NCBI GenBank assembly: GCA_963842945.1
Contig: CAWJIM010000021.1
Coordinates: 64,001 to 128,000 of the forward strand
Length of the DNA: 64,000 nt
Reading direction: 5' to 3'
From: an uncultured Gemmatimonadales bacterium
Lineage (GTDB): Bacteria > Gemmatimonadota > Gemmatimonadetes > Gemmatimonadales > GWC2-71-9
The translations under genes and the position numbers were made by a program. Below are positions 8,252 to 30,261 of the stretch, piece after piece; positions within the stretch are counted from its first letter, which is position 1, and each line of letters starts with the position of its first letter. The notes beneath the pieces were generated by a model. It searched no databases. It worked only from the letters and a program-made list of their open reading frames with translations, and was not told the origin of the DNA.

Positions 8252-8280
8252 GCAGCTGCCGACAGACGGAGTGGTAAACG

Positions 8281-8649
8281 ATGCGCATTCTCGTGGTTGA
8301 AGACGACGAAAAAGTCGGGGGCATGCTGGAACAGGGACTCCGGGAAGAGGAGTTCGAGGTGGGCCGGGGACGGGATGGGGAAGAGGCGCTCTCCATGGCC
8401 ATGAGTCATACCTACGACCTGATCCTACTCGACTACATGCTCCCCAAGAAGAGCGGGCCCGAAGTCGCCAGCGCGCTTCGTACTCAGGGCCGGCAGACTC
8501 CTATCCTCATGCTGACCGCGCGGGATGCGCCGGAAGACATCGAGCGATGCCTCACCTCCGGGGCCAACGGCTACGTTACCAAGCCATTCCGGTTCGCCGA
8601 TCTGCTGGAGCAGATCCAGCGGCTCGCTGAGCCGCCGGCCCTGGACTGA
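8281..8649 (+). CDS. Single-domain response regulator (OmpR-like receiver, no output domain)
   Basis: MRILVVEDD, LLDYMLP, LMLTARD, YVTKPF; stops at 122 aa with TGATG coupling to the kinase. Confidence 0.9.
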   Translation: MRILVVEDDEKVGGMLEQGLREEEFEVGRGRDGEEALSMAMSHTYDLILLDYMLPKKSGPEVASALRTQGRQTPILMLTARDAPEDIERCLTSGANGYVTKPFRFADLLEQIQRLAEPPALD

Positions 8650-9801: not shown

Positions 9802-9850
9802 CGACCCGGCACCCAACCTGCTCTCCAAGTCTCCTTAGCGTCAGGAGGAA

Positions 9851-11823: not shown

Positions 11824-12277
11824 GCGCGGCCGCCTGGCCAGGCCGGATCTCCGAATGGCGAATCTGACCTCCGAGATTGGCGACCCAACCGAAGTAGCCG
11901 CTCAACAGTACGCCCCCGATCAGCACGATCGCGGGATACCAGCGGGCCAGCGTGCGCCCGCCTCGGGAGCGGAGCCAACCGAACAGGGCCAGCAGAGCGA
12001 GTCCCGACATTCCGATAGTGCCGATGAGAGCCGCTTCCTCGTGCCGTTCCACCATGGAATCGAGCACTCCCGGCAACCCCTCGACCAGGTCTTCGGCGGG
12101 CTCTCCGGTCAGCTGAACCACGAGAGTCACGAGGGCAAGCAGGACCAGAAGTCCGAAGGCTGCTCTGATCAGCTCAGCGTTCCGCCGGACAAGTCCCCAG
12201 AGCAGCAATAGGACGACGATGGGGAGGCCGATCACCGGAACGTGATTGAGAGCAAGATGAATATGAGCCCAGCTCAT
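11777..12277 (-). CDS. Four-TM membrane protein, DUF2231-like
   Basis: HIHLALNHVP, TGEPAE, HEEAA, ANLGGQIRHSEIR. Confidence 0.7.
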   Translation of the reverse strand: MSWAHIHLALNHVPVIGLPIVVLLLLWGLVRRNAELIRAAFGLLVLLALVTLVVQLTGEPAEDLVEGLPGVLDSMVERHEEAALIGTIGMSGLALLALFGWLRSRGGRTLARWYPAIVLIGGVLLSGYFGWVANLGGQIRHSEIRPGQAAALSPGDEVVEPKDEKD

Positions 12278-12875
12278 GAGATACCTCCTGAACTACCTGA
12301 GTCTCAGCTGGCACGGCGAAGCCAACGGCCTCAGCCCGGCGGGCGATGCCGAGCAGCTGTTTCCGCTGCATGACGAGATGTCCCAGCGGCATAAGCGCAT
12401 CGCCCATCCAATGCGGCAGCCCCAACGGGGGACAATATGCCTCCCCGACACGAACCCGAACGATGAGCCGGGTACAGCCCGGAGCGGGCTCCTCTAGCAC
12501 GAAAGCCCAGGTCACGATGGGGACGCCCTCCGGCGAAGGCCAGCCCAGCACCAAGAACCGCTCGGCCTCAAAACTCAGAACCACAAAACCTTCGGTGATT
12601 CCCGGCTTCCCGGGAAATACGTCGCCGACCTTTACCTGCTGCAGCTCGGGAACGATTCGGTCGGCGCTCGGGCGGCCATTGTTGTCGATCCGATCGTAGC
12701 TGTACCAACCGGCTCGCCCACCGCCCATCTGCACCAGCCAGGGCCATACTTCACGGCGCGGACGCCGAATCGTGATGCCGTGGGTGATCATGGCCTGAGC
12801 CCTCGAGATCAGCTCATCGCCAGGAAGCATCCGCCAGCGCTCCCCGCGATTGGGTCGGACTGACCGTGCAATCAT
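12174..12875 (-). CDS. SRPBCC-like hypothetical protein
   Basis: LPGDELI..THGITIRRP..VWPWLVQMG.GRAGWYSYD..MQRKQLLGIARRAE; true end probably near 12274. Confidence 0.75.
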   Translation of the reverse strand: MIARSVRPNRGERWRMLPGDELISRAQAMITHGITIRRPRREVWPWLVQMGGGRAGWYSYDRIDNNGRPSADRIVPELQQVKVGDVFPGKPGITEGFVVLSFEAERFLVLGWPSPEGVPIVTWAFVLEEPAPGCTRLIVRVRVGEAYCPPLGLPHWMGDALMPLGHLVMQRKQLLGIARRAEAVGFAVPAETQVVQEVSHELGSYSSCSQSRSGDRPPHRRPIAALGTCPAER

Positions 12876-14057: not shown

Positions 14058-14459
14058 CTACAGATTGCCGGTGGCCACCGCGCGGACGATATCGGTGGTC
14101 GAAATCACGCCGACCACCTTGTCGTCGGCGGTGACAAACAGCCGGTGCACGTCGGCATAGAGCATCTGCTGCGCGGCCTCCCTGACTTCTGCATCGGGCG
14201 AGACGGTCAGCGGCCGCCGGGTCATGATGTCCCGCACCATCATCTGCTCGAACAGGGCCTCCCGCTCGACCGCATCGTTGGCTTCCGCCTCGGAGGTCAG
14301 GACGTCGGTGCTCGACACCACGCCGACCATGCGTCCCCCGCCGTCAACGACCGGGAGGGCGGAGATGTGTGCATCGGTCAGGGTCACCACCGCGTCGTTG
14401 ATCGAGGTATCCAGGTTGACGGTGATGACATCGCCCTGCATCAGTTCGCGGACCCTCAT
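14058..14459 (-). CDS. CBS domain pair protein
   Basis: MRVRELM..ISALPVVD..VGVVSSTD and VRDIMT..VHRLFV..VGVISTTDI. Confidence 0.93.
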   Translation of the reverse strand: MRVRELMQGDVITVNLDTSINDAVVTLTDAHISALPVVDGGGRMVGVVSSTDVLTSEAEANDAVEREALFEQMMVRDIMTRRPLTVSPDAEVREAAQQMLYADVHRLFVTADDKVVGVISTTDIVRAVATGNL

Positions 14460-14522
14460 ACGTCCTCCCGGTTCATGTCAGGATCAGGTGAGCTGCTGAC
14501 TGCAATCTGACGCATGGACACC

Positions 14523-14557
14523 TGAAAGAGCCTGAAGCTGCCGTGAAAAGACCTTCA
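14523..14557 (-). promoter_or_regulatory. TTCA direct-repeat operator upstream of the CBS gene
   Basis: TGAA at 14523, 14533 and 14544 on +; TGAAGC-N4-GTGAAA-N2-ACCTTCA shared with 15613-15637. Confidence 0.6.
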
Positions 14558-14600
14558 TGAAGCCGCCGGGGCACACTGCAGTTATGCCGGGGCGAATTCC

Positions 14601-15541
14601 TCACCGACACTGAGCGCTCGCACTCGTTCGGGCTTGGCCTGCCGCGCTCGCCGGGTTCGCGGGCACCGGAGGAACCACCAGCACCGGTACCTCCGCTGTA
14701 CGTACTAGCTTATCGGTCACGCTGCCCAGGATGAACCGCCGAATTCCTCCCCGCCCGTGAGTGGCCATCGCGATCAGGCTCACCCGTCCGGGACGCGCCA
14801 GCTCGCGCAACTGATGGGCTGGCATGTCGGTGCCCATCAGCGCCACCCCCGAGGCCTTCACCCCGCTGCTCCGAAGTCGCTCGGCCGCATGCCTGACGTA
14901 CTCCTCGGCGGACTCCCGCGCTATCGCCGTCAGCTCCTGGTCGGAGTTCTGAGCCGCTGCGATTCCCGGTTCACCGGCAATCGGGACCGGGTAGACGATC
15001 TGCGCCAGAGTCAGCTCCGCGTCCCACAGTCTGGCCAGCGCCGCCGCGGGCTGGAATGCCGTTTCCGCCAACGGCGAGCCGTCCAGCGGGACGAGGATTT
15101 CGCTGGGCTCGAACTCGGGTGCTGCGGCACCTCACACGGCTGGACTACCAGGACAGGTATTCCGATGCGGCGGATCAGTTGGTCGGTCACGCTGCCCAGC
15201 CAGGCGCGCTCCAGGCCACCACGACCGTGCGTCGTCATGATCACGAGGTCGGCGCCGATCTTTCGCGCCTGCTTTACCAGGGTGGCGGCAACCGGCCCGT
15301 GCAGGAGAGCGGAAGAAACAGAGTCTCCCAGGCGCTCTCTGGCTCGTGCGGTAAGCCGCGAGAGATACTGCCATGCCAGCTCGACGGGCTCGAGGGGAAT
15401 GCGGTCCTGGTAGACAAAGACGAACTGGACTCTGCTGCGGGCTCGCTCAGCAACAGCCAGCGCATAGGGAATCGCCGCTTCGGCCAAAGTCGAGCCATCC
15501 ACCGGCACGAGAATCGAGTGAAACGCGGTCTTGTCTGACAT
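14601..15541 (-). CDS. Tandem-domain universal stress protein, frameshift near 15100-15130
   Basis: ILVPVDGS..MTTHGRGG..LGSVTDQL..PVLVV, then ILVPLDGS..MATHGRGG..LGSVTDKL..PVLVV. Confidence 0.9.
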
Positions 15542-15612
15542 GAGAACACCTCCTGGGCGCCGAGTGACAGCTTGATACCGGACAATTTGCCTTCGACTCT
15601 CGTCAGGAAGCT

Positions 15613-15637
15613 TGAAGCCGGGGTGAAAGAACCTTCA
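15613..15637 (-). promoter_or_regulatory. TTCA direct-repeat operator upstream of the USP gene
   Basis: TGAAGCCGGGGTGAAAGAACCTTCA, about 72 nt upstream of the start, same spacing as the CBS site. Confidence 0.6.
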
Positions 15638-15652
15638 CGATCCGGGAAGGCG

Positions 15653-15683
15653 GCAAAGAAAGACCCCGGAACGAATCCGGGGC
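15653..15683 (-). terminator. Intrinsic terminator of the hsp20 gene
   Basis: On -: GGCCCCGGA-TTCGT-TCCGGGGTC followed by TTTCTTTG. Confidence 0.65.
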
Positions 15684-15710
15684 CTGGAGGTCGTCGAGGA
15701 CCGGACGTCG

Positions 15711-16169
15711 TTACTTGATGACGATCCGGTTGGCCACCGCCGGCGCGACCTTGCGCAGGTGGATCACCAGGATTCCATCCTGATAGGTGGCCTTGACTTC
15801 CTTCTCCATTACCGGCGCGGGCAGGCGAATGGTACGGGTGAACTTTCCGACCTCGCGCTCCCGGCGCAGATAGGTCTCACCCGCGATCTCGGGCACCAAC
15901 TCGCGGCGGCCGTTGAGGGTCAGCAACGTGCCGGTCAGGTTGATGTCGAGGTTCTCCTTGTGAACGCCAGCCACCTCGAGCCGCACGATGTACTCCTCCG
16001 CGGTCTCGGTGAGGTCCAGCGCCGGATACCATTCCGCTTCCGCAGTCTCGAACGGGAATGGCGGAATGAAGGGCTCCGTCAGGAACCCGGGGGTAAGGAA
16101 GCGATCGAAGAACCGCTCGACTTCCTCTCCCACTTTCCCCTTCATGGGGGCCAGCTTCGCAACTCGCAT
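15711..16169 (-). CDS. Hsp20/alpha-crystallin family protein
   Basis: PALDLTET, LTLNGRR, REREVGKFTRTIRLP, ATYQDGILVIHL.K. Confidence 0.93.
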   Translation of the reverse strand: MRVAKLAPMKGKVGEEVERFFDRFLTPGFLTEPFIPPFPFETAEAEWYPALDLTETAEEYIVRLEVAGVHKENLDINLTGTLLTLNGRRELVPEIAGETYLRREREVGKFTRTIRLPAPVMEKEVKATYQDGILVIHLRKVAPAVANRIVIK

Positions 16170-16220
16170 AGAACCTCCTGTGAAATCGAAGTTGCAGGAG
16201 CAAAATACCGCTTGGCCCCT

Positions 16221-16297
16221 AAAGACTCCGTGAAACCCCGGTGAAATTTTGTCCCGCTGAATCAGAAAGATCTCACCCGGATTTCATCCTGCCTTTA
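16221..16297. promoter_or_regulatory. Back-to-back TTCA-N7 repeat arrays in the hsp20/tonB divergent promoter
   Basis: TAAA/TGAA/TGAA at 16221, 16231, 16242 (facing hsp20); CTCA/TTCA/TTTA at 16272, 16283, 16294 (facing tonB). Confidence 0.55.
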
Positions 16298-16346
16298 ATT
16301 CCCGGGTGGTAGCTTCGGATCGTAACTTCTCGAGCGAGCGTGGCCT

Positions 16347-17066
16347 ATGTTCGACGTCCTTCTTGCTTCCGGGGTGCACCGGGATATCAAGTTTCGCTGG
16401 TTCACCACTTCCGCGCTGAGCCACGGACTGTTGCTGGCGCTGGCAATCGGGGCCACACGCTCCGCCATGGAGGCAGCCCGGACCGCGCTACCCAACGACG
16501 AAATCCTGCTGTTCATCCCCCGGGCACCCGAGCCTCCGCCTCCTATCCGGGCGGAAAAGCCCGCCACGATCGTCAATCTGGGCGATCCTCCGCCGCAGGG
16601 ATTCCAAACGGTGCCGCCGCTGAGCGAAATCCCCAGCGTGATTCCGCAGGTGGACCTGAACCAGCGGCCGTTCGACCCGCGGGATTTCACCGGCCGCGGA
16701 ATGGAGGGCGGCGTGGCCGATGGAGTGGTGGGAGGCACCCGCCCGGTCGAGGTGCATGAGATCTACCAGGCAACCACGAACCTCCCCGGCTTCGAGCCTG
16801 CTATGGTGCTGTCCCAGCCAACACCCGAGTACCCCAGTGGGTTGGCCTCGGTAGGCATCGAAGGACGGGTGGAGGTGCAGTTCGTGATCGATACCACCGG
16901 GAAAGTCGAGCCTTCGTCATTCCAGGTGGTGAAGAGCACGCAGGTGGGGTTCGAGCCGGCCGCCCGCACGGCGATCATGGGATCCTTATTCCGGCCGGCC
17001 CGACTCAGCAATGTTCCCGTTCGCCAGCTCACCCGGCAGGCAATCAGATTCGTGGCAGCCCACTGA
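16347..17066 (+). CDS. Energy transducer TonB family protein
   Basis: N-terminal TM with S..SH motif, Pro-rich linker, PEYP..GIEGRVEVQFVIDTTGKV..FRPA C-domain. Confidence 0.88.
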   Translation: MFDVLLASGVHRDIKFRWFTTSALSHGLLLALAIGATRSAMEAARTALPNDEILLFIPRAPEPPPPIRAEKPATIVNLGDPPPQGFQTVPPLSEIPSVIPQVDLNQRPFDPRDFTGRGMEGGVADGVVGGTRPVEVHEIYQATTNLPGFEPAMVLSQPTPEYPSGLASVGIEGRVEVQFVIDTTGKVEPSSFQVVKSTQVGFEPAARTAIMGSLFRPARLSNVPVRQLTRQAIRFVAAH

Positions 17067-17146: not shown

Positions 17147-18594
17147 TTAATCCCCTCCTGGAATGGCCGCACCGTGACACACAGTGCAGGCCTGAGAGTT
17201 CTTGCGCCGCAGCGTCTCCGGATCGAAGCCGGGGCCGTGGGGGTTGAATCGCCGCCCGCCCACCGCCGAGTGGCAAGTGAGACAATCGCGCTCCGCATGG
17301 CAGGCCACGCAGCTCTCCAGGTTCTGCCGCGCGGCCTGGCCGTGATTCAGCAGGAAGAACTGCTTGGCATCATGGTACCCTGCATTCAAGCGGCCCTTGC
17401 GCGGAGAGTCCGGCCTTGACATGACAGTCGGCGCAGAACTGGCCGGTGTTGTGGCAGTCGCTGCAGCTGGTCTCTCGGGTGTATGCAGCCGCCGGGTGAC
17501 GGGAGAGAAAGCCTGCAGGGTGGTATCCCGGGGTGGGATCTGCCGGATTGGGCCGGTGGCAGTCGAGGCACTGGGGCCGCACATGGCACCCTTCGCAGGA
17601 CTGGGGCCGGGCATCGGCCACCGGACCATGAATCTCGGTGAAATCCCGTCCATGCGAGTCGGGCCGCTCTCGCTCGGATGCTCGGCGCCTTTCCTCGTCC
17701 GGGTCCCGCAACCGGGAGGGCATGGACCGTGGCAGGCTTGCCGACATGACAGGTGAGGCAGCTCTCCTGGGTGTGACAGGTGGCGCAGGTGCCGGGAGAC
17801 TTGCGGGCCGGCTCTCCATGCCGGAACAGGAACTCGGGGTCTGCGATGATCGGCGGGCGCCTCGAGCTTCGCCTGGATGGCGGTCGACCGGGGATCGCGG
17901 CGCAGAGCCTGGATCACCGGCACTTCTGGCGCATTCACGTGGCATTGGATGCAGAAGTCCCGGGCATGGCAGGTGGCACAGGCCGCCGAGACCTTCGGCT
18001 CCGCCGGAGGCGCGGGCCAGCTTGCCATGCCCGCTGAAGGCAAAGCCGGGCTCGCTGGTGCGACTCCGGGGCCGGGAATTCGGCGACATCCTGCCGGGTC
18101 AGCCGGATCGCCTGGGCCAGCGGGACGTGGCAGGTGGCGCAGCTAGTGTCGGGTGCCGACAGATGGGCGGTCTGGATCCCATGGCAGTTAAGGCAGCTCT
18201 CGACCACGGCCAGTCGGACCTGCATTCGTCCTCCGGGTCCGGCATGGCAGACTCGACAACGCAGCGCAGAATCCTTCGCGGTAGCTTTCGCGCACCGCCT
18301 CGGCATGCCCGTCATGGGTAAACCGGAGGTTGGTTCGGGGCGGACCGGAAGGCGGCTGCCAGTCTACCCGGTCTTCTCGACCGTTCCATCATGACAGTCG
18401 GCACATGCGGTCGGCGGCAGGCCAGAGTGGCCGGTCCGACTCCTGCACGCCGGCATGGCAAGCTATGCAACTGGGAAAGAGCTTCCGGTGTTGCCAGTGG
18501 TCGAAGCGGTCCTGGCGCTCCTGGGAGAGGCCTCCGGCCGGGCTCCGCCGCCGAGTAAGACGAAAACAGCGACGATGACCCAGCGAAGCTTCAT
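17147..18594 (-). CDS. Exported multiheme c-type cytochrome, ~16 CxxCH (frameshifted)
   Basis: Signal MKLRWVIVAVFVLL. Motifs across frames: CIACH CADCH CRVCH CLNCH CATCH CATCH CIQCH CATCH CLTCH CEGCH CLDCH CSDCH CADCH CVACH CLTCH CTVCH. Confidence 0.88.
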
Positions 18595-20101
18595 CGCGTT
18601 CCCGCTGGAGGTCGGGTCCGGAGCGCCCGCGGGAAGGCGCGAGCGATCCGCTCCGCTACCCAGGAACAAGGTGACGCCGGCGTGCAGTCGGGTCTGATTC
18701 CAGTCGATCCCGCTGGCGTCGGGACGCCGCCGGTCCTCTCGATAGTGAGCCCCGCCCAGGGCCAGCCGCAATCGATCGCTGGGCCGCCACTCCGCATCCA
18801 GGCCCAACACGTCCACCCCTGCCTCTTCGAACCGAAACTCCAGTGGCCGGTCCAGCGTTGATCCATAGGCCGTGAGCGTGAGCTGAGCCAGCGGCACGGC
18901 GCTGATGCTGGCCTCGAATCCATGGGACGAGGCGCCGGGTCCGTACTCCTCCCGGTATCCCGCATCGAAGGTCCAGACTGCATTGGGACTGAAGGAGGCT
19001 CCGACCCCCAGACGCCAGCCGTCGTCATCCACATCCACCAGCGGGGTCTGAGGTCTCGGTAGGGGAATAGGCGTAATGCTCCCCGCGGCCCCTCAGCTCC
19101 AGCGCCGGCAAGGGGCGGACCCAGACCGAAGCATTCACTGCGTGGTAGGGCACCGGACTGAAGGCGCCCCAGATGGTCCAGAGATCGAAGTGGGGCCGGT
19201 ATTGCCGGGCGCCCACCAGCGCGGTGACGGCGGGCGTCGTGTAGCGCAGGCTCAGCGTCGGCGTTGCCGAACCAGGTGTTGGCCAGGTCGTACTCCGCTC
19301 CGCCCGTGACGCTCCATCGCGAGAGGGGCGCAGCTCGCCCGAAACGGCCGCCCGCTCGGACCCGAACTGCCGGGAGTCGCGATCCACCTCGCGCTGATAG
19401 TCGAGCCGCGACCTGGCCGTACCGGCCGGCCCAGCCCAGCGCACCGCCGGCCAGCAGCTGCCGGGACTCGGGGCTGAAACTCGTCCAGCGGGTTGATCGC
19501 CGAGCTGGAGACCGGGAGTGCCGTGGCCCGAGCCAGTCCGTAGCCGACGTAGCCTTCGGCTTCGAGACCCAGCCGCTGGGAACGGACGGTCGCCCGACCG
19601 CCGTCGAAGCCGACGATGCCGAGCCGGCTCACCAGCAGCTGGCGCCCGAGCCGGGCGGTCACGCCGCGGCTGGCGTAGTCGGCGTACGCCTCCAGCAGTT
19701 GAATCGGGGGGTCGGTTCCGGGCCAGACCTCACTCTCGCCAAGGTCGGTGCCCGCTCGCGCGTTCACTCGAAGGCTCAGACCATTCATGCCCAGCCCCCA
19801 GAGCAGTAAGGTCGGCGCTGGTGACCAGAGGCCCTCCCTGCAGATAGGGGCCCGGCCGAAAGAAGAAGCAGTGCGTCGCCCCGGGCTGGCAGCGAACGAA
19901 GAATCCGTCCGCAGTCTGGAATCCCCCGGTCGGCCCGACCACGACGTCGGTGGCGAGCACGCTGTCGGCCCGGACCCCACGGTAGGCGGCAGCCTGGGCT
20001 CGGGCATCGAGCCGGAGCCGATAGCCCTGCGCCTCGAGCGCGGGGGTGAGGAGCCAGCACCGAGTCAGCGACGAGCATCCAGCGCTCCGGGCTCGGCTCA
20101 C
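18591..20101 (-). CDS. Outer-membrane beta-barrel (porin) of a porin-cytochrome cluster (frameshifted)
   Basis: GTG start overlapping the upstream stop, signal ending ALEA-Q, amphipathic strands (LLEAYADY, ARLGRQ, GFDGGR, WRLGVGASF, LGLDAEWR, RLHAGVTLFL), no heme motifs; ATGA coupling downstream. Confidence 0.75.
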
Positions 20102-22156
20102 GATTCCGCGCCCGTCTTCCTCAGATGGCGGCGGTATGCTTCCGGTGACTCGAGGAAGTGGCACTCGGTGCATTGCTTCGCCGCGTAGTGATCGACCTGC
20201 GGGAATGGCAGGTCAAACAGAACGAGCGAGTGGGGATCAGCTCGGCGACGGTCTCTGGCGCATGGCACTGGTCGCAGCCCGAGTGCGCTTCGACCGGCCT
20301 GGCATGGGCCGCGTTGATCTCGCGCGGTTCTGATGGCAGGCGGCGCAGTCGCGGTCCGCGGCGTGGTGATCGTCGTGACAGGCGATGCAGGCTGCGGCCT
20401 TCGGGATCGGCACGAGGCTCACCGGCGCCGTGTGGCACTGCACGCACTGGACTTCGCGTGTGCTCCGAGTGCTCGAACTCAACCGGTCGCGATCGCGTCG
20501 GGTGGTGCTTGGGACACCCCGACCACGACGGTGACCGGCCGGGCGGAGGAAAGCTCGTCACCGTGTGGCACGTCGCGCAGTCGCTCCGGGCGGGGCGCTG
20601 ATGATGGCAGATCTGGCAGCCGCGCGGCGGCTCGAAAGGTCAGGTCGCTGCGCCGAGAGGTGGTGCTGTGGCAGGTGATGCAGGCGAGTCGGCGATGGCG
20701 TTCATGGGAGAAGGTGTCGGGGGGGAAGGAGGCGGCTGCGCTCGCTCCCCGGTGGTCCCCTGGTGGTGCGTCTCCCTGCCCTCGCGATCGGCCCGGCTCG
20801 ACTAACCGGTTCGATTGCTGGAGCGCCTTGGTGGTATCGAAGGGAAGCGGCGGTCGCATCCGCCCGCCGCCCTTTCTCACCTCGGTGTGGCATCCGGTGC
20901 AGTCGCTCGCATCCACCCGGGCTGCATGGGGCTGGTGGCAAGTCTCGCAGCGCTGGGCCACCTTCCGGTGCGCCGCGCCCACATGGAAGGGAACGCTGCG
21001 CCAGGTTGCGTGACAGTTGGCATCGGTGCAGGACTTCAGCGCGTCCTTCGGCTTCACATCGGTATGCGGGTTGTGACACATCCCGCAGCTCCCGCCGTGC
21101 GGGTCCTTGACGGGATCGAAGGTCGCCAGCAGCGCTCGCATCTCATGGCACCCGAAGCACTGTCGCTCGCGTGGCTGCAGGGTCTTGGTCGCGGAGTCCA
21201 GCGACACGAGCTGGGCCTCGGCCGTGAACTGGTGGCAGGAGTTGCAGTAGAGCTGCTCCTCATTGGGCAGCGGCTGGCTGGGCGGCCATGGAAGCGCGCC
21301 GCCATCCGGCCCAGCCGAATCTTGACGTCGTCGGTCAGATGGCAGCCCTTCTGGGCGCAGGTGGTGTCAGCCGGCTGGAAGCGGTGGGCGGTGCGGGCGT
21401 GACAGGTTAGACACTGAACATCTTTGAGGGGAGCTGAATCGGATTCGAGGTGGATGCGATGGCCGGCGGTCGAGGCTATCCGCTGCCAGGTCTTCTTGGC
21501 CTCGCCCTGGACGTGGCACTGTTCGCAGATGGTTCGCGGTACCTTGGCGTGAGGCGGGATCTTGTCCGGCCGCGCCATGATCCAGTAGTACAGCTCCTTG
21601 GTCTGGGCCTTGAGATCGAACGGATGACAGGCATGACAGGAGAGGCTGTCGTGCGTCCCCTCCAGCTGGTTGACCAGGAGGTAGGTGCCGGTATCCGGCC
21701 GGACGAAGATCTGGCCGCTGGGCACGAAGATGTGGCAGCCCGCGACAGAAATCGTTGTCGTGCATGACGTAGTCATGGGCCTTGAGCCCTCCGGCGAGCG
21801 ACCAGAAGCAGGACCGCGCCAACCGCCGAACCGAGCGCCAGCTTGACCCCGCGGTCGCGGGTGATCAGCCAGTGGCCAATTGGCTTTCCCTGCGCTCCAG
21901 ATAGCAGGAGGACCGCGAGCGCGACGCAGCGCGCCGAGCACGATCCCGCTGATCATCACCCAGCTGGGGCGCTGGAAGATCCATTGGACGATCGGGATGA
22001 GGGGATCGGGCAGCGGTGAGCGCACCACCACCGAATCGACAAACCGGCCGGAGAGTGAATCCTGGATCCGCCGAGATGGTGTCGGAGACCGGAGGGTGGG
22101 CCTGAATACGCAAGAGCCCCCGACCACACCGCTTTGACCAGGTGGACGGGGGCCAT
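20098..22156 (-). CDS. Membrane-anchored NapC/NirT-like multiheme cytochrome with long C-terminal heme chain, ~20 hemes (frameshifted)
   Basis: Two hydrophobic segments, then DYVMHDNDFCRGCH; 18 CxxCH plus 2 CX4CH (CAQKGCH, CTDANCH) across frames; ends QCTECHFLESPEAYRRHLRKTGAES*. Confidence 0.85.
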
Positions 22157-22170
22157 GAGTGCTGGAAGTG

Positions 22171-23805
22171 CTAGCGGACCGAGATAGGCCGGCCCGGCGC
22201 GGGCCGGATGAGCGGCCGTCCGTTTCTGGCCTCGACCTTCTTCATAATATCCTGGACCGCCACACTGGCCTGTGGGAGGCCGGGATACGTAGCGCGGAGC
22301 TCATCGATGTTTGCGGTCAGCAGTGCCCGCGCCAGGAATGGGTTGTGCACGCCGGATGAGCCGTCCACGCCGCCACCCAGCTCGCGCGGGCCGGGCCGGA
22401 GCATCCGCACGTTGAACAGGGCACCCTCCGCCGGCGTGATGTGGTTGTCTGTGGTCGCGTATTCGGTCGGCGGGACGTTGGTGAAGTCCGACAGGTAGCC
22501 TCCATCGGTCGGCGCCGCCTCAACCGTATCGTTGCCGTTCTTGTCGTCCCAGATCTGCTTGGTCAGCTGATCCAGGAGCTGGCCCGAGGAGGCGAAGGCG
22601 GCAGCGGCGGTAGAGGCATCGCCGTGGCAGCCGGAATTGGTGCAGGCTCCCCAGGTCCGCGCCTGGGTATCGTACGCGCAGGTTCTGTCGGTGGTTGGCG
22701 CGCCCTGCCCATCCAGGCATGGGATAGGCAGAAACAGATGGCCCACCGAGTGAACGACCTGGTTCCCCGTGTTTGGGTCGGTCACATCGTATCCGTTCAC
22801 ATGACAGCCGGCACACAGCCTCGGGTTGCGCTCCGACCCGTGGGTACTGGCCACCGCCTGCACGTCGGGATCGAACCCGGCCGGGTGATAGCCGGCATCA
22901 CCCAGGAGCATCGGTCCCTGCGGAGAGTGCGGCCCGCGCGCTGAAGCCTCATCCGGCTCCGCCCGGCGCTGGTGGCACTTCATGCACAGGTTCTGATTGA
23001 CGTCCGGCACGTCGATCGGATACCGAAGCTGGCCAGCTACGGGTAGGCCGTCCGTGCCGGTGGTGAAACCATGCGGGTCATGGCACACGGCGCAGGTAAT
23101 TCCCAGATAATTTTCGGTGCCGGGCAAACCCTTCTCCGCATAGTCGGCGGTTACACCCCAGGCCGCCAACACATCGCGTCCTTCGTGACAGGAGCCGCAG
23201 GTGGGAGATGCATCCTTGACGAAGGTGCCGTCCTCCTCCTGCAACGAGACTGCGTGGGCCGAGAGCTTCCATTCATCGACGAAGGGATGATGGAACCCAC
23301 TGTGGCAATCGGCGCAGCTCTGCGCCATGGTGGTCGAGTCACCCAGCACCGCCACATGGGCCAGGGGCGGATTTCCCGCGCCCGCAGGAGCATCCGGATT
23401 CTGGGCGTGGGTATTGCCGGGACCGTGACAGCTCTCGCATTGGACGTCGTGGTACGCCGTATCCTTCACCACGTCCCACCCGGCCGGCCCGGCTGCCGCA
23501 TTGCCCTTGTCGCTGACGGTGTGACACGACTCGCAGAACGACTGGGACGCACCGGAGTTGAGCAAAGTGGCGTACGCGTTGGCGTGAGCCGTGTTGACCC
23601 AGCCCGCCTGGTGGCTGGTGTGGCAGTTACCGCAGGTGGTGTTCTTATCGCTGCTGGTGAAGTAGCCGAGGAAACCGGAGTTTGCGTCCGGGGGAGGATT
23701 GATGGGCTCGCGGTAGACGATCTTCTCGTCGGTACAGCCAGAGAACAGCATTACCGCCAGAGCAGCAATGCTCGCGACCTGCCAGCCGGCAAATCTCTTG
23801 GCCAT
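22171..23805 (-). CDS. Multiheme c-type cytochrome lipoprotein (8 CxxCH + 1 CX4CH)
   Basis: LFSGC lipobox; CGNCH CESCH CESCH CADCH CGSCH CAVCH CMKCH CAGCH CTNSGCH; C-terminal DGSSGVHNP helical region. Confidence 0.93.
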   Translation of the reverse strand: MAKRFAGWQVASIAALAVMLFSGCTDEKIVYREPINPPPDANSGFLGYFTSSDKNTTCGNCHTSHQAGWVNTAHANAYATLLNSGASQSFCESCHTVSDKGNAAAGPAGWDVVKDTAYHDVQCESCHGPGNTHAQNPDAPAGAGNPPLAHVAVLGDSTTMAQSCADCHSGFHHPFVDEWKLSAHAVSLQEEDGTFVKDASPTCGSCHEGRDVLAAWGVTADYAEKGLPGTENYLGITCAVCHDPHGFTTGTDGLPVAGQLRYPIDVPDVNQNLCMKCHQRRAEPDEASARGPHSPQGPMLLGDAGYHPAGFDPDVQAVASTHGSERNPRLCAGCHVNGYDVTDPNTGNQVVHSVGHLFLPIPCLDGQGAPTTDRTCAYDTQARTWGACTNSGCHGDASTAAAAFASSGQLLDQLTKQIWDDKNGNDTVEAAPTDGGYLSDFTNVPPTEYATTDNHITPAEGALFNVRMLRPGPRELGGGVDGSSGVHNPFLARALLTANIDELRATYPGLPQASVAVQDIMKKVEARNGRPLIRPAPGRPISVR

Positions 23806-23916: not shown

Positions 23917-24064
23917 TAATTCTCGTGTCCTGGCTCCGCCCGGCTATGCGAAGGGAACCATCTCACCTGCCCAGTCCCGTAGTGCCTGCGGATTCCCGCT
24001 CAGCGCTGAATTCCCCAGACCAGTTACCCAGAATTTTCTAGTCTGAGCATAGTTGCATTGCGCC

Positions 24065-24079
24065 TTCATCTCCGCTTCA
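24065..24079 (+). promoter_or_regulatory. TTCA-N7-TTCA operator upstream of the YceI gene
   Basis: TTCATCTCCGCTTCA, identical to 7940-7954. Confidence 0.6.
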
Positions 24080-24122
24080 TGAACGTGGCTCCAAGTTTCA
24101 GGTAAACACGCTGGAGGGAGCC

Positions 24123-24755
24123 ATGCGAATTGCTCGGATGACAGTGGTCACGATGGGCCTGGCGGCGCTCATGCAGGTTGGGGCTCGAGCGGCAGAGGCG
24201 CAAACCGCTGCGGAAGCGTCCAGCGGGTATGCCAGGCAGACCAAATGGGTGGTGGACATGGTCCACTCCCAGGTCGACTTTGGAGTCCGCCATCTGGTAG
24301 GGCGCGTCCGCGGCACTTTTAACAAGTGGTATGCCATCCTCACCACCAAAGACGGTGACTGGAAGCTGGGGAAGGTGGACGTCCAGATCGAGACAGCCAG
24401 CCTGAACACCGGTAACAATTATCGCGACACAGACCTCCGTTCCGATCGTTTCTTTGCCGTGACTCACTACCCCAAGATGACGTTCCAGGGGGAGGGGTTC
24501 ATGGCGACCGACAGCACCCTCGACGTGATCGGCGCGCTGACCATCAAGGGGCACACGAAACCGGTGGTGCTGTCGGGGAAGTATCGAGGCATTGCCCGGG
24601 ACCAAGAAGGGCGCGAGCGGATCGCCTTTGAGGCGACGACCAATGTGGATCGCCGTGATTTCGGCATGAATTGGAACGAGAGCGTCGCCGGTACCGAGCT
24701 GATCGGAAATGATGTGGAGATCACGATCGGCATCGAGGCGGTGCGGGTCGACTGA
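24123..24755 (+). CDS. YceI family lipid/isoprenoid-binding protein
   Basis: Signal peptide; WVVDMVHSQVDFGVRH, SLNTGNNYRDTDLRS..FF, GALTIKGHTKPV, RRDFGMNW. Confidence 0.93.
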   Translation: MRIARMTVVTMGLAALMQVGARAAEAQTAAEASSGYARQTKWVVDMVHSQVDFGVRHLVGRVRGTFNKWYAILTTKDGDWKLGKVDVQIETASLNTGNNYRDTDLRSDRFFAVTHYPKMTFQGEGFMATDSTLDVIGALTIKGHTKPVVLSGKYRGIARDQEGRERIAFEATTNVDRRDFGMNWNESVAGTELIGNDVEITIGIEAVRVD

Positions 24756-24794: not shown

Positions 24795-24938
24795 GCTTGC
24801 GGCCATATGGTAGGGTTATGTCACTCCGCTATCGCCTTGGATTCACCCCCATGCTGGGCCGGGCGGCTCCAGGCCGGTGGAATCTGTACTTCATGCAGAC
24901 CGACGGCCCAGCCTGATAGTTTGCGGTGGCTTCTTCCG

Positions 24939-25727
24939 ATGACTAGTGGCGCTGCCTCCCTCTGCCAGTCTTGCGGCACCCCACTCGTTGGCAAGTTCTG
25001 CTCCAATTGTGGAGCCTCTCGCGAAGCCTCGACCTGCACTCACTGCGGTGTCCCGATTCCCACCAGCGCGCGGTTTTGCCCCGCCTGTGGGGCGCCGGTG
25101 GGTGGGAGGGCGGCTGCAGCCCGGGACCGTACCCCATGGGTCATCGCCGGAGGAGCAGTGGCTGCCCTGATGGCAGCGCTCCTCATCATGCTCGCCCGCG
25201 GGTCGCCGAACGTCTCCGCTCAGCCCGAGGTAGCCGCCGTTCAGCCTTCGGCCGCCGAGGAGTCGCCGCCGGACATCAGCCGCATGAGTCCGCGGGAGCG
25301 GTTCAATCGCCTCTACAATCGCGTGATGCAGGCAGCCCAGGCGGGGGATGAGGCTACCGTTACCCAGTTCACTCCGATGGCGTTGATGGCGTATGCCCAG
25401 TTGGACACCGTCGACGCCGACGCCCGCTATCATGCCGCTCTCCTCCAGGTTCACACCGGCGACGTCACCGCCTCCCGGGCTCTAGGCGACAGCATCCTGG
25501 CCCAGACGCCGGGGCACCTCTTCGGCTACATGATTCAGGGGACGGTGGCTCGGTTTCAGAAGGACCAGAAGGCGCTCTCCCGAGCGTATGCGGCATTCTT
25601 GAAGCGTTATGACGGGGAGATCAAGCTCGCGCGGCCGGAGTACAGCGAGCACCAGACCTCCCTGCAGGATTTCCGCAAGGCAGCGCTGGAGGGAACCGGG
25701 ACGGCTACTCCACCCACTCGGCAATGA
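24939..25727 (+). CDS. Double zinc-ribbon membrane protein with helical periplasmic domain
   Basis: CQSCG..FCSNCG and CTHCG..FCPACG, one TM, TPR-like helices. Confidence 0.75.
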   Translation: MTSGAASLCQSCGTPLVGKFCSNCGASREASTCTHCGVPIPTSARFCPACGAPVGGRAAAARDRTPWVIAGGAVAALMAALLIMLARGSPNVSAQPEVAAVQPSAAEESPPDISRMSPRERFNRLYNRVMQAAQAGDEATVTQFTPMALMAYAQLDTVDADARYHAALLQVHTGDVTASRALGDSILAQTPGHLFGYMIQGTVARFQKDQKALSRAYAAFLKRYDGEIKLARPEYSEHQTSLQDFRKAALEGTGTATPPTRQ

Positions 25728-26769
25728 AGATGTTCGTCTCCCCCGGCTGCTTCGCCCGGCGGTTGGAGGCGAAAACCAGGCTCTTCCCATCCGGACTGAA
25801 CATGGGAAAGCTGTCGAACTCCGGGCTCGTCGTCACCCTCTCCAGCCCGCTGCCGTCCACCCCGACGAGATAAAGATCGAAGTTCCGGCTTCTCGGATCA
25901 GGATAGTTCGACGCGAACACGATACGGAGTCCATCTGGGTGAAAGAACGGCGCGAAGCTGGCGGCACCCAGATGGGTCACCTGACGAGCGTTGCTGCCGT
26001 CGGCACCGGCTACCCAAAGCTCCAGCCGGGTGGGCCGCACCAGCCGCTGGCCGAGGAGGTGCCGATAGTCGGCGGAGTCGGCCGCCGTTTCGGGATACAT
26101 CGTCCGCCACACCAGCCGGGCTCCGTCCGGTGAGAAGAAGGCGCCTCCATCGTAGCCGACCCGGCGGGTAACCCGGCGGATATCGGTGCCGTCCACTTTC
26201 ATGGTGTACAGCTCGATGTCGCCCTCCCGCGTACTGGTGAACACTATGCGGCTTCCGTCGGGCGAAACGGTGGCCTCGGCGTCGTAGGCATCGTTGTGGG
26301 TAAGCCGCTGGATGTCGTTTCCGTCGGCTCGAGCGGTGTAGAGCTCGAAATTGTGCAGTGGCCAGACGTAGCCCTGCGACCGATCCACCGGAGGGGGACA
26401 CTCCGGTGAGCTCTCGAAAGTGGAGCTGTAGAGAATGCGGCGTCCGTCCTGATAGAAGTAGCCGCAGGTGGTGCGGCCCCTCCCGTTCGACACCCGGTGC
26501 AGTCCGCTGCCGTCCACATTCATCACGTACTGCTGGTCACAGCCGTGGTTCAGCTGCTCCTGCCGCTGGAAAATCAGTTGCCGGCCATCGGGCGAGAAGT
26601 ACGCCTCGGCGTTGTTGCCGCCGAAGGTGAGCTGCCGAACATTGCGGAAATGGCGCTCGCCCGGAGCCGAGGCCGAAGGCGCTCGAGAGCAGCCAGCGGC
26701 GGAAATTGCCAGCGCTGCGGCCACCGGCAGCAAAAAGCGCGAGGGACTACAGCCGGTAAAGCCTGGCAT
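25705..26769 (-). CDS. TolB-like PD40 beta-propeller lipoprotein
   Basis: AAGC lipobox; repeated (F/V)SPDG..LVF units (EAYFSPDG, EATVSPDG, GAFFSPDG, PMFSPDG). Confidence 0.88.
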   Translation of the reverse strand: MPGFTGCSPSRFLLPVAAALAISAAGCSRAPSASAPGERHFRNVRQLTFGGNNAEAYFSPDGRQLIFQRQEQLNHGCDQQYVMNVDGSGLHRVSNGRGRTTCGYFYQDGRRILYSSTFESSPECPPPVDRSQGYVWPLHNFELYTARADGNDIQRLTHNDAYDAEATVSPDGSRIVFTSTREGDIELYTMKVDGTDIRRVTRRVGYDGGAFFSPDGARLVWRTMYPETAADSADYRHLLGQRLVRPTRLELWVAGADGSNARQVTHLGAASFAPFFHPDGLRIVFASNYPDPRSRNFDLYLVGVDGSGLERVTTSPEFDSFPMFSPDGKSLVFASNRRAKQPGETNIFIAEWVE

Positions 26770-28252
26770 ACTTGTTCCGCAAAGCGTCAATCAGGGGCCG
26801 GTGGTTGGGAGGAGACCCGGTGACGAGCTCTATCAATCTCGCCGAGGGATAGCGACTTCCCTCCCGATAGACCTTGCGTCTCAGCCAGCCGGACAGCTCA
26901 GCGAACTCCCCCCGGGCAAACTGGCTCTCCAGATCGCCCAGCTCGGATTCGGCCTGGGCGAACAGCTGCGCCGCAAACACATCGCCCAGGGTGTAGGTTG
27001 GGAAGTACCCGATGAGGCCATCGGCCCAATGGCCGTCTTGCAGGCAGCCCTCCCGGTCATTGGCCGGCATGACCCCGAGATACCTGCGGTAAGCGGCATT
27101 CCAGGCTTCGGGCACATCGGCAGACTTGAGATCTCCCAACATGAGCGCGCGCTCCAGCTCGAAGCGTATGAGAATGTGAAGGTTGTAGGTGACCTCGTCG
27201 GCGTTGACTCTGATCAGCGTCGGTTTCACCTGGTTGACCGCGAGAACAAAGCGATCCAGACCGTACCCGCGCAGAGCATCGGGAAACAGCTCTCGGCATC
27301 GAGGATAGAAGTAGCGCCAGAACCCGGGACTCCGTCCCACCCGATTTTCCCAGAGTCGGGCCTGGGCCTCGTCCATTGCGACGGAAGCCGACTCACCCAT
27401 CGGGGTTCCATAGTAGCTGGGGTCCAACCCCTGCTCGTATAGCCCGTGACCGACCTCGTGCAGAATGGTGAGCACTCCAGCCACGAAATCGGCCTCGTCA
27501 AACCGCAAGACCAGCCGGCAATCTCCCGGGCCGATGGCGCTGCAGGAGGGGTGGATTCCCAGGTCGAACCGACCCCGGAGGCGGTCGAAACCAGCGGCGA
27601 CCGCCACCGTTTCACCGAAGCTCCGTTGCTGGTCCACCGGGAAAGGGCCCCGAGGAACTGGCGGGAGAACTGGACGCTCGGCAATCTGCCCTGCGAGCTC
27701 AACCAGACTCTGCCGCAGTGCCTCGAAGAGCCGTCCCACGATCCGGCTGTCGATGCCGGGCTCGTGGTCTTCGATGAGCGCATCGTAAGGCTCACCCGAG
27801 TAGCCAACGCACTCCGCCTCGTCCCGCTTCAGGGCGATGATCTTGTCGAGCCAGGGACGAAAGTCCCTGAATTGTGAGGCCGCCCGGGCCTGGGCCCAGG
27901 CGGTCTGGGCCAGAGCGGTGGTGCGGGCCACCTCCTCCACCAGGCGGCGGGGGAGTCGAACATAGCGGTCATACTCCCGCCGCAGTTCCCGGACGTTCAC
28001 TGAAACGGGAGACCTGGGATCGGCGACGAGGTCCGACCTTTCCAACTCCGCCAGCAGCTCGCCGATCTTGGGATCGGTCCCCCGCTCATGCAGCAGTCCG
28101 GCCAGGAGCGCCAGTTGATCACTTCGGTTCTCCACCCCGCCCGGCGGCATGTAGGTCTCCTCGTCCCACTCGAGCAGCGCCTCGCAAGAGGTGAGGAGAG
28201 TCTCCTCCCGCACTCTTTGGATCAGCTCGTCGTAGGCGGTTTCGGCGCGCAT
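26747..28252 (-). CDS. Carboxypeptidase M32 (Taq-like)
   Basis: LLEWDEETYMP, PYDALI, HEVGHGLYEQG (HEXXH), IRVNADEVTYNLH, GCLQDGHW, YFPTYTLG. Confidence 0.93.
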   Translation of the reverse strand: MRAETAYDELIQRVREETLLTSCEALLEWDEETYMPPGGVENRSDQLALLAGLLHERGTDPKIGELLAELERSDLVADPRSPVSVNVRELRREYDRYVRLPRRLVEEVARTTALAQTAWAQARAASQFRDFRPWLDKIIALKRDEAECVGYSGEPYDALIEDHEPGIDSRIVGRLFEALRQSLVELAGQIAERPVLPPVPRGPFPVDQQRSFGETVAVAAGFDRLRGRFDLGIHPSCSAIGPGDCRLVLRFDEADFVAGVLTILHEVGHGLYEQGLDPSYYGTPMGESASVAMDEAQARLWENRVGRSPGFWRYFYPRCRELFPDALRGYGLDRFVLAVNQVKPTLIRVNADEVTYNLHILIRFELERALMLGDLKSADVPEAWNAAYRRYLGVMPANDREGCLQDGHWADGLIGYFPTYTLGDVFAAQLFAQAESELGDLESQFARGEFAELSGWLRRKVYREGSRYPSARLIELVTGSPPNHRPLIDALRNKYARLYRL

Positions 28253-28346
28253 AGGCGGTCCAGGATCGAACGGGTCGGCGTTGCGGCACTGCGAGGAGGA
28301 CGTAACATACACGGGCAAGCCTTACCACCCGAACCGCTGAAGCGAG

Positions 28347-29837
28347 ATGCTTACTCCCGCTGAGGAGTTGGGACTGAGTGGGCTGGCCCTGGCCAGCCGA
28401 GTTCAACACGCCCTCTATCGCCTGGGCGAGGACCGGCTCATCCGGCTGGTGGAAGACCTGCGCGAGGAGGCAGTGGCTCGCCATATGGTCTATTTCCACG
28501 ACGGCGAGATCGAGCCGATCCGGGTGCTTCCCCTGCCGCTCACGGTCCTGCCCGACCAGCTAGCCTACATCCACCATGTCACTCTCACCGTGCAGAATGC
28601 CCTCAAGCGCCTCCCTCGGCTCTATCTGGACGACCCAGACGTGCGGCAGATTCTTCGGTTGCCCGACCCGGAGGAGCGCTGGCTGGTCGAGTGCTGGGGC
28701 ACCAGCCAGGAGGAGCACAACTCGGTTTTCGGACGCATGGACGCCCTGATCGATTTCACCAGCCCCATGTGGAAGAACTCATTCCGTCTGGTGGAGCCCA
28801 ACCTGAGCGGGATCGGCGGGCTCCACATGGTCCCCCACAGCGAGCGGCTGGTGTCGGAGCTGGTGGTGCCCGCGCTCCGGCGGGAGGACCCCGAGCTGGA
28901 CCTCGAGTGCGGACATGACATCCGGGAGCTCCTCTTCCAGGAAATTCTGGATCATATGGAGGCCATCGACTCGGGCCCACAGCTCTGCCTGATCGAAGCC
29001 AAGTACTCCGGCGACGGCCCCGACGAGCAGGAGCAGCTGTGCCGCTACTTCCACGACCGGCACGGGCTGCACGTGATGCATGCGGATCCGGCCGAGCTGG
29101 AGCTGCAGCAGGGTGAGGTCCGCTACTGTGGTACCCGGGTAGATCTCGGATATCGCGACTACAGTGTGACCGATCTCCTGGAGCTGGAGGAGGAGGGCGT
29201 CAGCGTCGAGCCGATGAAGCAGCTGCTGCGCCAGAACCGACTGATCTCATCCATCGCCGCCGAGCTGGACCAGAAGAGCTGCTGGGAAGTGCTGACCGAC
29301 CCGCTGATCGCCCAGAAGTACTTCAGTCCGGACGAACGGCTGGTTTTTCAGCGACATGTTCTCTGGACCCGGCTAATCTCCGACCGGCGGACGGTGCTCC
29401 CCGAAGGGCATCTGGGCGAGTTGCTGGAATACGTCGCCCGGCACCAGGATGACCTGGTGCTCAAGCCCAATCGCTCCTACGGCGGCGAAGGGGTGATGCT
29501 GGGCTGCGCGGTGTCTGATTCACAATGGCGCGACACCATCGAAGCGGCGCTGGCCGATCCCGGGAGCTGGGTGGCGCAGCAGCTGGCGACCATTCCGGTG
29601 CGGGAGTTCCCGGTGCTGCGTCCGGACGGAACGCTGAGCGTCGAGCCGTTCTACACGGTCATGGGTTTCGCGGCGACCGAACACGGAGTGTCGATTCTGG
29701 CCCGCGCGTCGCAGAAGCAGGTGGTCAACGTGGCCCAGCGGGGCGGGCTTGCTGCCGTGCTGGTGAGTCGCACGGCGCCGGTGATCGCAGCCCCGGCCAC
29801 TGCTCTTGATCTTCACCTCAGTTGGGGGAAGCTTTAG
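28347..29837 (+). CDS. Circularly permuted ATP-grasp (glutathionylspermidine synthase-like) ligase
   Basis: RMDALID, LVEPNLSGIGG, LVLKPNRSYGGEGVMLG, WVAQQ, VVNVAQRGG. Confidence 0.8.
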   Translation: MLTPAEELGLSGLALASRVQHALYRLGEDRLIRLVEDLREEAVARHMVYFHDGEIEPIRVLPLPLTVLPDQLAYIHHVTLTVQNALKRLPRLYLDDPDVRQILRLPDPEERWLVECWGTSQEEHNSVFGRMDALIDFTSPMWKNSFRLVEPNLSGIGGLHMVPHSERLVSELVVPALRREDPELDLECGHDIRELLFQEILDHMEAIDSGPQLCLIEAKYSGDGPDEQEQLCRYFHDRHGLHVMHADPAELELQQGEVRYCGTRVDLGYRDYSVTDLLELEEEGVSVEPMKQLLRQNRLISSIAAELDQKSCWEVLTDPLIAQKYFSPDERLVFQRHVLWTRLISDRRTVLPEGHLGELLEYVARHQDDLVLKPNRSYGGEGVMLGCAVSDSQWRDTIEAALADPGSWVAQQLATIPVREFPVLRPDGTLSVEPFYTVMGFAATEHGVSILARASQKQVVNVAQRGGLAAVLVSRTAPVIAAPATALDLHLSWGKL

Positions 29838-29840
29838 ATC

Positions 29841-30254
29841 ATGAAAGCCGGCCACAAGTTCCTGCTCGGCGCCGCCATCATCGTCAGCAGCGTGGGCTTC
29901 CTCATCACCGAGGGGGTCAAGGAGACCGGGGTCTACTTCCTGACCCCGGCCGAGCTGGCGGCCAAGACGGCCACCGATCCGAGCTTCGTGGAGAACGTCG
30001 GGTTCAAGGTGGGCGCCAAGGTGGTGCCCGGGTCGGTCCGGCGGGATCCGGGGGCCCAGGTCATCGATTTCCAGGTCTCGGACGGGATCAAGACCTATCC
30101 GGTGACCTACCACGGTCTGGTGCCGGATACCTTCACCGATGCCAATGACATCGAGGTCGTGGTCGAAGGGCGGTTGGGCCGGGACGGTGTCATCCGCGCC
30201 ACCGATGTGCTCGCCAAGTGCGGCTCCCGCTACGAGGCTGTTCCCAAGGCCTGA
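29841..30254 (+). CDS. ccmE: Cytochrome c maturation heme chaperone CcmE, CxxxY type
   Basis: N-terminal TM, YFLTPAE, VVPGSV, PDTF, VVVEG, LAKCGSRY. Confidence 0.9.
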   Translation: MKAGHKFLLGAAIIVSSVGFLITEGVKETGVYFLTPAELAAKTATDPSFVENVGFKVGAKVVPGSVRRDPGAQVIDFQVSDGIKTYPVTYHGLVPDTFTDANDIEVVVEGRLGRDGVIRATDVLAKCGSRYEAVPKA

Positions 30255-30261
30255 GCATTCC

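Follow-up and report, generated by a model that had tools for sequence, protein, structure and literature searches.

We report a cassette of four genes, g1 to g4, which occupies positions 17147-23805 on the minus strand of a 64,000-nucleotide stretch of a soil Gemmatimonadales genome (GenBank assembly GCA_963842945.1, contig CAWJIM010000021.1, positions 64,001 to 128,000; hereafter the window). We rate at slightly better than even odds, roughly 0.55, the reading that this cassette encodes a porin-cytochrome conduit, which would draw electrons from quinols in the inner membrane and lead them over the periplasm and through the outer membrane to external acceptors, for example Fe(III) or Mn(IV) minerals or humics. 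All four genes lie on the minus strand. The first, g1 (22171-23805, 544 amino acids (aa) in an open frame), encodes a nonaheme lipoprotein cytochrome resembling OcwA and OmhA, and is followed by g2 (20098-22156), encoding a 20-heme cytochrome with a two-helix hairpin and a NapC/NirT-like start, by g3 (18591-20101), encoding a predicted outer-membrane beta-barrel of about 500 aa that belongs to an unnamed family, and by g4 (17147-18594), encoding a 16-heme cytochrome that starts with a signal peptide or anchor. The cluster and the junctions described by a first-pass annotation of the window are all present: the stop codon of g1 (TAG) is separated by a 14-nt gap from the ATG of g2 at 22156, g2 and g3 overlap in a GTGA (20101-20098) and g3 and g4 overlap in an ATGA (18594-18591). 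The sequence thus shows both the order of the genes and their translational coupling. The frames of g2, g3 and g4 are broken in the window, and the 20- and 16-heme counts and the size of the barrel are taken from motifs conserved in local frames and from intact orthologues in relatives, which agree with the 9, 20 and 16 hemes and the barrel of about 500 aa that had been claimed.

In the mechanism that we propose, g2 would oxidise menaquinol at the inner membrane and the electrons would run over the other 16 hemes of g2 to the N-terminal half of g4 in the periplasm, which would carry them through the g3 barrel to g1 at the outer leaflet or the cell surface. From there, g1 would hand the electrons to an insoluble or large external acceptor. 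Both g2 and g4 look like wires of sufficient length to cross the periplasm with no need of soluble carriers, because they hold one heme for about every 28 residues, compared with about 33 residues per heme for MtrA (a value cited in PMC5566968).

Cytochromes and barrel of the cassette

The g1 protein has an LFSGC lipobox, eight CxxCH motifs and a single CX4CH motif (CTNSGCH). The lipobox cysteine, Cys24, and all nine heme motifs are invariant in 41 g1 orthologues, and the intact g1 proteins of relatives, of about 545-575 aa, have the same 8+1 arrangement of heme sites. Pfam models matched by g1 are PF22113 (E 1.8e-11) and Cytochrome_C554 (E 2.7e-7), the window's own copy scoring 44.3 bits with the former, for which the cut-off is 30. 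A profile built from the 41 orthologues was compared with the PDB and found, at the head of the list, 6qvm_A (E 3.7e-18) and 6i5b_A (E 1.8e-16). These structures are listed in Table 1 of PMC9250108 as OmhA, an undecaheme cytochrome of Carboxydothermus ferrireducens, and OcwA, a nonaheme surface reductase of Thermincola potens, respectively. Weaker matches are to the MtrA chain of 6r2q (E 1.6e-9), to hydroxylamine oxidoreductase (HAO; E 1.9e-7) and to cytochrome c554 (E 8.3e-6). A pair of histidines (HH) following the fourth heme motif and a C-terminal GVHN motif are both common to g1 and OcwA/OmhA. By this profile kinship g1 is a member of the OcwA/OmhA family of surface reductases; it bears a lipobox, and its own place at the cell surface is putative. 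As to type II secretion, the GspG model (TIGR01710) gave five matches, all of them under the cut-off, and the T2SSK model (PF03934) gave one, which is uninformative since this model also matches 10 of 14 control genomes, Gram-positives included.

Intact orthologues of g2 are 670-693 aa in length and carry 18 CxxCH and two CX4CH motifs, with 19 invariant non-motif histidines alongside the 20 heme sites. AlphaFold2 (AF2) places helices at residues 66-89 and 103-133 with a predicted local distance difference test score (pLDDT) above 90, and the arginine-rich loop between the two helices, taken together with the positive-inside rule, suggests that both ends of the protein are periplasmic. When 53 g2 sequences were compared by hhalign with eight proteins of NrfH/NapC type from the phylum, residues 114-262 of g2, comprising the second transmembrane helix and hemes 1-4, matched at a probability of 96.8 (E 3.1e-10), and the four g2 motifs in this region align with all four motifs of the NrfH/NapC family. 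One g2 orthologue, from genome G028, lies inside a complete g1-g2-g3-g4 cassette and itself matches the NapC/NirT model PF03264 with 29.3 bits, against a cut-off of 24.1; among 151 genomes sampled from the phylum, 43 have matches to this model. The first four hemes of g2 are therefore read here, from sequence comparison, as a probable divergent and remote NapC/NirT module with a predicted role as a quinol dehydrogenase, and the order of hairpin and tetraheme module fits the first-pass proposal that the cassette has a quinol module of its own. As a separate observation on the same family, loci L098-L106 encode proteins of about 526-580 aa that begin with a NapC/NirT domain of four hemes (E 1e-25 to 1e-31), fused to a C-terminal domain that looks like a formylglycine-generating-enzyme or sulfatase-modifying domain.

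The barrel gene is represented in relatives by intact proteins of about 500 aa without a heme motif. For the g3 orthologue of genome G024, AF2 returns an all-beta model with 23-24 strand elements (pLDDT 76.8, predicted template modelling score (pTM) 0.70), from which a plug domain is absent. The Foldseek list for g3 consists of outer-membrane barrels save for a single S-layer assembly entry, and MtrB stands sixth in it (E 2.5e-8, template modelling (TM) score 0.40). The list from VIA-align is likewise made up of outer-membrane barrels, the best of which are the 22-strand barrels of TonB-dependent receptors and 24-strand ushers; its best match is the barrel of Fiu (Z 18.9, root-mean-square deviation 4.6, 354 residues). 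AF2, Foldseek and VIA-align concur in giving the product of the middle gene the fold of an outer-membrane barrel, as had been claimed, and we describe g3 as a plug-less barrel of some 22-24 strands from an unnamed family. A Pfam scan of intact g3 at E<=0.1 gave OMP_b-brl alone (E 0.033) and no MtrB/PioB-type family. There are at least 1205 relatives of g3 in the databases, and among the 120 listed there is no functional name, the entries reading 'hypothetical protein', being blank or, once, reading 'opacity protein-like surface antigen'. Those relatives that carry the name of an organism are, among the matches listed, all from Gemmatimonadales, and the 30 Atlas clusters nearest to g3 are all unnamed and all from Gemmatimonadota.

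Sixteen CxxCH motifs, many of them paired, follow the hydrophobic N-terminal signal or anchor of g4, whose orthologues have 14-18 such motifs in 479-556 aa, with 16-18 in the intact frames of relatives of the window's genome. Pfam matches are to PF22113 (E 7.1e-14; 52.1 bits, cut-off 30) and to Paired_CXXCH (E 3e-9). A model of the complex of g3 with g4 scored 0.63, where the best of three controls scored 0.00; 116 of 157 solved complexes and two of 215 mismatched pairs attain the mark used for this score, counts that serve here as a rough guide, since custom alignments were used. Contact agreement in the runs was at least 52% and the pLDDT of the partner at least 69. Residues 250-470 of g4 touch residues of the barrel from strand 1 to the last strand, and an invariant segment of the barrel, F305..Y319, which is its most conserved stretch, touches residues 419-423 of g4, also invariant, with the tightest pairs at 419-421. 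For g4, the C-terminal half is predicted to lie in the lumen of g3, because the contacts are spread all round the barrel, as expected of a cytochrome in that position. For the threading of the porin, which the first-pass annotation had wanted tested by modelling, this gives the support of a prediction made without hemes.

Known conduits and competing roles

The closest parallel in layout is the MtrCAB complex of Shewanella (PDB 6R2Q; relatives MtoAB and PioAB) together with CymA, which follows the same logic: a cytochrome sits inside an outer-membrane barrel, a second cytochrome is a lipoprotein, and a quinol module of NapC/NirT type lies at the inner membrane. Stretches similar to domains II/IV of MtrC/MtrF (PF22113) also occur in g4 and g1 of the cassette. 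The parts nevertheless differ. Between MtrB and g3 there is no match at the level of sequence family, and the folds nearest to g3 are those of TonB-dependent receptor barrels and ushers. The decaheme MtrA has no counterpart, the candidate for threading the barrel being g4 with its 16 hemes; with the MtrA/DmsE decaheme model TIGR03508, the scores are 35.3-35.6 bits for g1 and 23.1-28.3 bits for g2, against a curated cut-off of 192.2. In the place of MtrC the cassette has a nonaheme lipoprotein of the OcwA type and, whereas CymA is encoded apart, the quinol module of the cassette is encoded in the operon and is fused to 16 more hemes. The view that this is not the decaheme MtrA/MtrC layout is upheld both by the TIGR03508 scores, which fall far below the cut-off, and by the lack of an MtrB-type family at E<=0.1.

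The resemblance of g1 to OcwA and OmhA extends over profile kinship, the HH pair and GVHN and, for OcwA, the number of nine heme sites. OcwA and OmhA are surface reductases of Gram-positive iron reducers, however, whereas g1 is a diderm lipoprotein that is encoded with a barrel and whose surface location is putative. The Pcc systems of Geobacter (OmbB-OmaB-OmcB, ExtABCD), compared by description, are like the cassette in that a single cluster encodes a barrel, there with at least about 20 strands, together with a multiheme cytochrome of the periplasm and a cytochrome that is a lipoprotein. With the GSU2203 decaheme model the cytochromes of the cassette score 19-37 bits against a cut-off of 325, and we know of no Geobacter cluster with a NapC/NirT fusion in the operon. 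PCC3 clusters share with the cassette a porin, many-heme cytochromes and few residues per heme. As described in PMC5566968, PCC3 combines a porin with two cytochromes of a median of 34 and 21 hemes and a low residue-to-heme ratio, for which an envelope-spanning role is proposed, and with a conserved five-helix inner-membrane protein of b-heme type bearing two HX13H motifs; its hosts are mostly Proteobacteria. No protein of this five-helix type is present among the four genes of the cassette, which is flanked by genes for YceI and TonB_C and whose g2 has two helices. As in porin-cytochrome clusters generally, a barrel (g3) directly adjoins cytochromes, here of 9, 20 and 16 heme sites. The claim of a new architecture stands, then, as far as it concerns a distinct combination of parts, but the porin-cytochrome kind itself is known.

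Several points weigh against a conduit of this sort. The superfamily of g1, which includes NrfA, HAO, MccA and OcwA, is mostly catalytic, and at the second distal-histidine site g1 has one histidine (GPHSPQ) where OcwA/OmhA have a pair (GVHHPQ), a difference numbered by eye. Beyond the hairpin, the AF2 model of the whole of g2 is poor (pLDDT 51.5). PF03264 does not match g2 of the window's genus at E<=0.1, and a profile search of the window's own genome with this model found no match. The g3-g4 model contained no hemes, and the solved structure of MtrAB may have biased it in part. To our knowledge there is no cultured host of the cassette. The sequence, moreover, gives no direction of electron flow, and outward flow is favoured only because the nearest solved relatives of g1 are terminal reductases.

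The same parts could run as an inward conduit, in which electrons from external donors such as Fe(II), Mn(II), reduced humics or a cathode would pass to the quinone pool, as proposed for MtoAB, PioAB and PCC3. The architecture of the cassette fits either direction, and PCC3 and PCC4 clusters with many-heme cytochromes have been proposed to serve in oxidation (He et al. 2017, PMC5566968), but OcwA and OmhA, the closest solved relatives of g1, are terminal reductases of iron reducers, and we hold the inward direction to be unlikely. We regard as more improbable again a periplasmic catalytic module, in which g1 would act as a tethered reductase or oxidase for a soluble nitrogen or sulphur compound and would be fed by an NrfH-like g2, with the barrel and g4 serving in import or storage. 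Such a module would be consistent with the place of g1 within the NrfA/ONR/HAO/MccA/c554 superfamily, as seen in its matches to HAO and c554, with the reduction of nitrite and hydroxylamine by OcwA in vitro (PMC9250108), with the direct adjacency of g1 to a NapC/NirT-like gene, as in nrfHA, and with the presence in g1 of only eight conserved non-motif histidines for nine hemes. A periplasmic enzyme, on the other hand, needs neither the 16 extra hemes of g2 nor a 16-heme g4 that is predicted to lie in the lumen of a barrel; genome G027 has a core of g1, g3 and g4 without g2; and the best PDB matches of g1 are the two surface reductases rather than the enzymes. An outward porin-cytochrome conduit remains the reading that we prefer.

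Frame breaks and genomic neighbourhood

Within 17147-23805, g1 is the sole long open frame on the minus strand and, 3' of g1, CxxCH-rich frames alternate repeatedly among the three minus-strand frames. When aligned to locus L031, an intact orthologue, the cassette of the window shows 28 frameshifting indels, with none in g1, 12 in g2, 7 in g3 and 9 in g4, and those in g2-g4 are mostly single-base (+1) insertions. DNA identity to L031 is 0.829 for g1, 0.836 for g2, 0.843 for g3 and 0.841 for g4, and heme motifs survive in the local frame at 9 of 9 sites in g1, 19 of 20 in g2 and 16 of 16 in g4 (44 of 45 overall), the lone motif lost being one of g2, where a base is inserted at 21745. Because divergence is not raised in g2-g4 and because 44 of the 45 heme motifs survive locally, we consider from these comparisons that the breaks are most likely errors in the assembly consensus and not gene decay. 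The extra bases of the window are missing from G011, L031 and L027, and those in 21745-22112 are also absent from short-read soil-metagenome contigs of two runs. L027 is itself broken, at sites of its own, and among related loci in which g1, g2 or g4 is split, seven of nine lie on contigs longer than 380 kb, which we take to be long-read assemblies. The window's genome is 86.9% complete, yet is held in just 24 contigs.

The patchiness of the indels speaks against this explanation, since g1 has none and only two are found across 24.9-30.1 kb, which is unusual for uniform sequencing error. It might instead be that the 28 frameshifts are real and that the cassette of this strain is a decaying cluster of pseudogenes; the indels are specific to the window in every comparison made, and they crowd into g2-g4 while g1 and the 5-kb flank are clean. 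The divergence of g2-g4 does not exceed that of g1, however, large deletions are lacking, the heme motifs are almost all retained, ccmF of the window is broken in like manner and related loci on contigs of more than 380 kb are similarly broken at other sites, and we give very little credence to decay. Programmed frameshifting and an alternative genetic code were also considered and were rejected, because the indels are scattered, differ among assemblies and are absent from relatives. Across the window, indels relative to close relatives are dense in 17147-22165, 7317-12293 and 30256-32984 and almost absent from 24919-30136; the dense region at 18-22 kb is also the GC-richest stretch, at 67-69% GC. 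As a consequence of the indels, genes g2, g3 and g4 of the cassette will be overlooked or garbled by automatic annotation here.

Coverage of the stretch was at most 0.16 in each of 20 sequencing runs. Short contigs from four runs are only 92-99% alike to it and so derive from relatives and not from the window's own strain. A rhizosphere metatranscriptome library, X20, contains contigs over parts of g1 (22161-23741) with 95-100% identity, including a piece of 232 nt (22161-22392) that runs across the stop of g1 and the start of g2 with zero mismatches. These contigs offer a weak hint of expression in situ, and carry-over of DNA could explain them too.

Outside the cassette, a divergent gene on the plus strand at 24042-24752 encodes a YceI-like protein (PF04264, E 1.7e-38). 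Some 6 kb from the cassette, the ccmEFH locus reported in the first-pass annotation was recovered on the plus strand at 29838-32885, with CcmE at 29838-30251 (E 2.1e-24), ccmF split over three frames at 30255-32842 (Cytochrom_C_asm at 30255-31430 and CcmF_C at 31297-32685 and 31784-32842) and CcmH at 32301-32885; these are general genes for the maturation of cytochrome c and do not form part of the cassette. The breaks in ccmF resemble the single-base indels of the cytochrome cassette. On the other side, a plus-strand gene for a TonB_C-domain protein (16326-17063) converges on g4 and, downstream of the cassette on the minus strand, a run of stress-type genes at 14061-16283 encodes two universal stress proteins, an Hsp20 and a protein with a CBS domain. 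Elsewhere in the window, AT skew is strongly negative in 30001-32000 (-0.21), 34001-36000 (-0.16) and 62001-64000 (-0.19), and close to zero in most other bins.

Distribution and significance of the cassette

The survey of distribution that the first-pass annotation had called for was carried out with a profile of the barrel: of 401 Gemmatimonadota genomes sampled, 181 have it. By group, the barrel is present in 117 of 166 genomes of the window's family, in 11 of 24 of its genus and in 0 of 19 from three families outside its class. A pattern scan of 185,579 species genomes gave 273 confirmed places that encode a relative of the barrel, and among the best 80 of these, 77 are in records with a Gemmatimonad-something title; the other three, labelled Acidimicrobiaceae, Vicinamibacterales and Bacillota, are suspected to be binning errors. 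The host of the window belongs to Gemmatimonadales, in agreement with the earlier placement in Gemmatimonadota.

All four genes are present in 62 of these best 80 loci, and in 49 of them g2 is single, intact and canonical, with 17-18 CxxCH motifs. Genome G027 has two copies of g1 with g3 and g4, and its retention of these three genes without g2 suggests that g1, g3 and g4 are the core of the cassette. An expanded form occurs in six of the 80, including L114 (G178, 3797-10647) and L116 (G081, 1-11834), in which the order is g1, a 9-heme gene, a gene for a 21-heme protein with a full-length match to PF03264, an 11-heme gene, g3 and g4.

Upstream context was counted in those 43 loci whose flank before g1 measures 4 kb or more. 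A zinc-ribbon gene is found there in 27 of the 43, a pair of NiFe hydrogenase genes in seven and YceI in two. The first-pass annotation was right to place a divergent YceI gene beside the cassette but, because it adjoins in just two of the 43 loci, this neighbour is incidental. The hydrogenase pair lies divergently upstream of g1 in L021, L022, L023, L042, L044, L056 and L074, and a NiFe hydrogenase is also present in G027 and G013 (as noted in L016, 3765-6624, and in L015). The large subunit matches PF00374 with E 1.3e-232 and the small subunit has a Tat signal. This neighbour, which is recurrent though confined to a minority of loci, may link the oxidation of H2 to the conduit.

A literature search that covered passages of main texts found no account of the cassette, in line with the claim that it is unmatched to a characterised system, though supplementary tables could name such clusters. 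For metagenome-assembled genomes of Gemmatimonadota, the portions of the reports covered (PMC11495043, PMC13264449, PMC6295460, PMC9769843, PMC8478452) hold only general statements on multiheme or iron-cycling genes, and Table 1 of Zhong and Shi (2018) gives two ImcH homologues and one CbcL homologue in Gemmatimonadetes.

It is possible, though we put the chance a little short of even, that a large share of Gemmatimonadota has a self-contained 45-heme conduit from quinone to exterior that dispenses with soluble shuttles, built from an independently evolved barrel, a NapC/NirT module joined to a heme wire that spans the periplasm, and an OcwA reductase of Gram-positive type now serving as a diderm lipoprotein, and linked genetically in some lineages to an uptake NiFe hydrogenase. 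Gemmatimonadota are among the most abundant phyla of soil, with few cultured members, and their abilities in anaerobic and extracellular redox chemistry are barely known. A cassette found in 181 of 401 genomes would offer a testable genetic basis for respiration of minerals, humics or electrodes, or for the uptake of electrons. It would also extend the short list of trans-envelope conduits by one in which a lipoprotein of OcwA type and a NapC/NirT fusion are combined with a new barrel and the 16-heme cytochrome threaded through it. If this is true, the respiration of minerals or humics, possibly driven by H2, would be a mainstream and overlooked trait of the Gemmatimonadota of soil.

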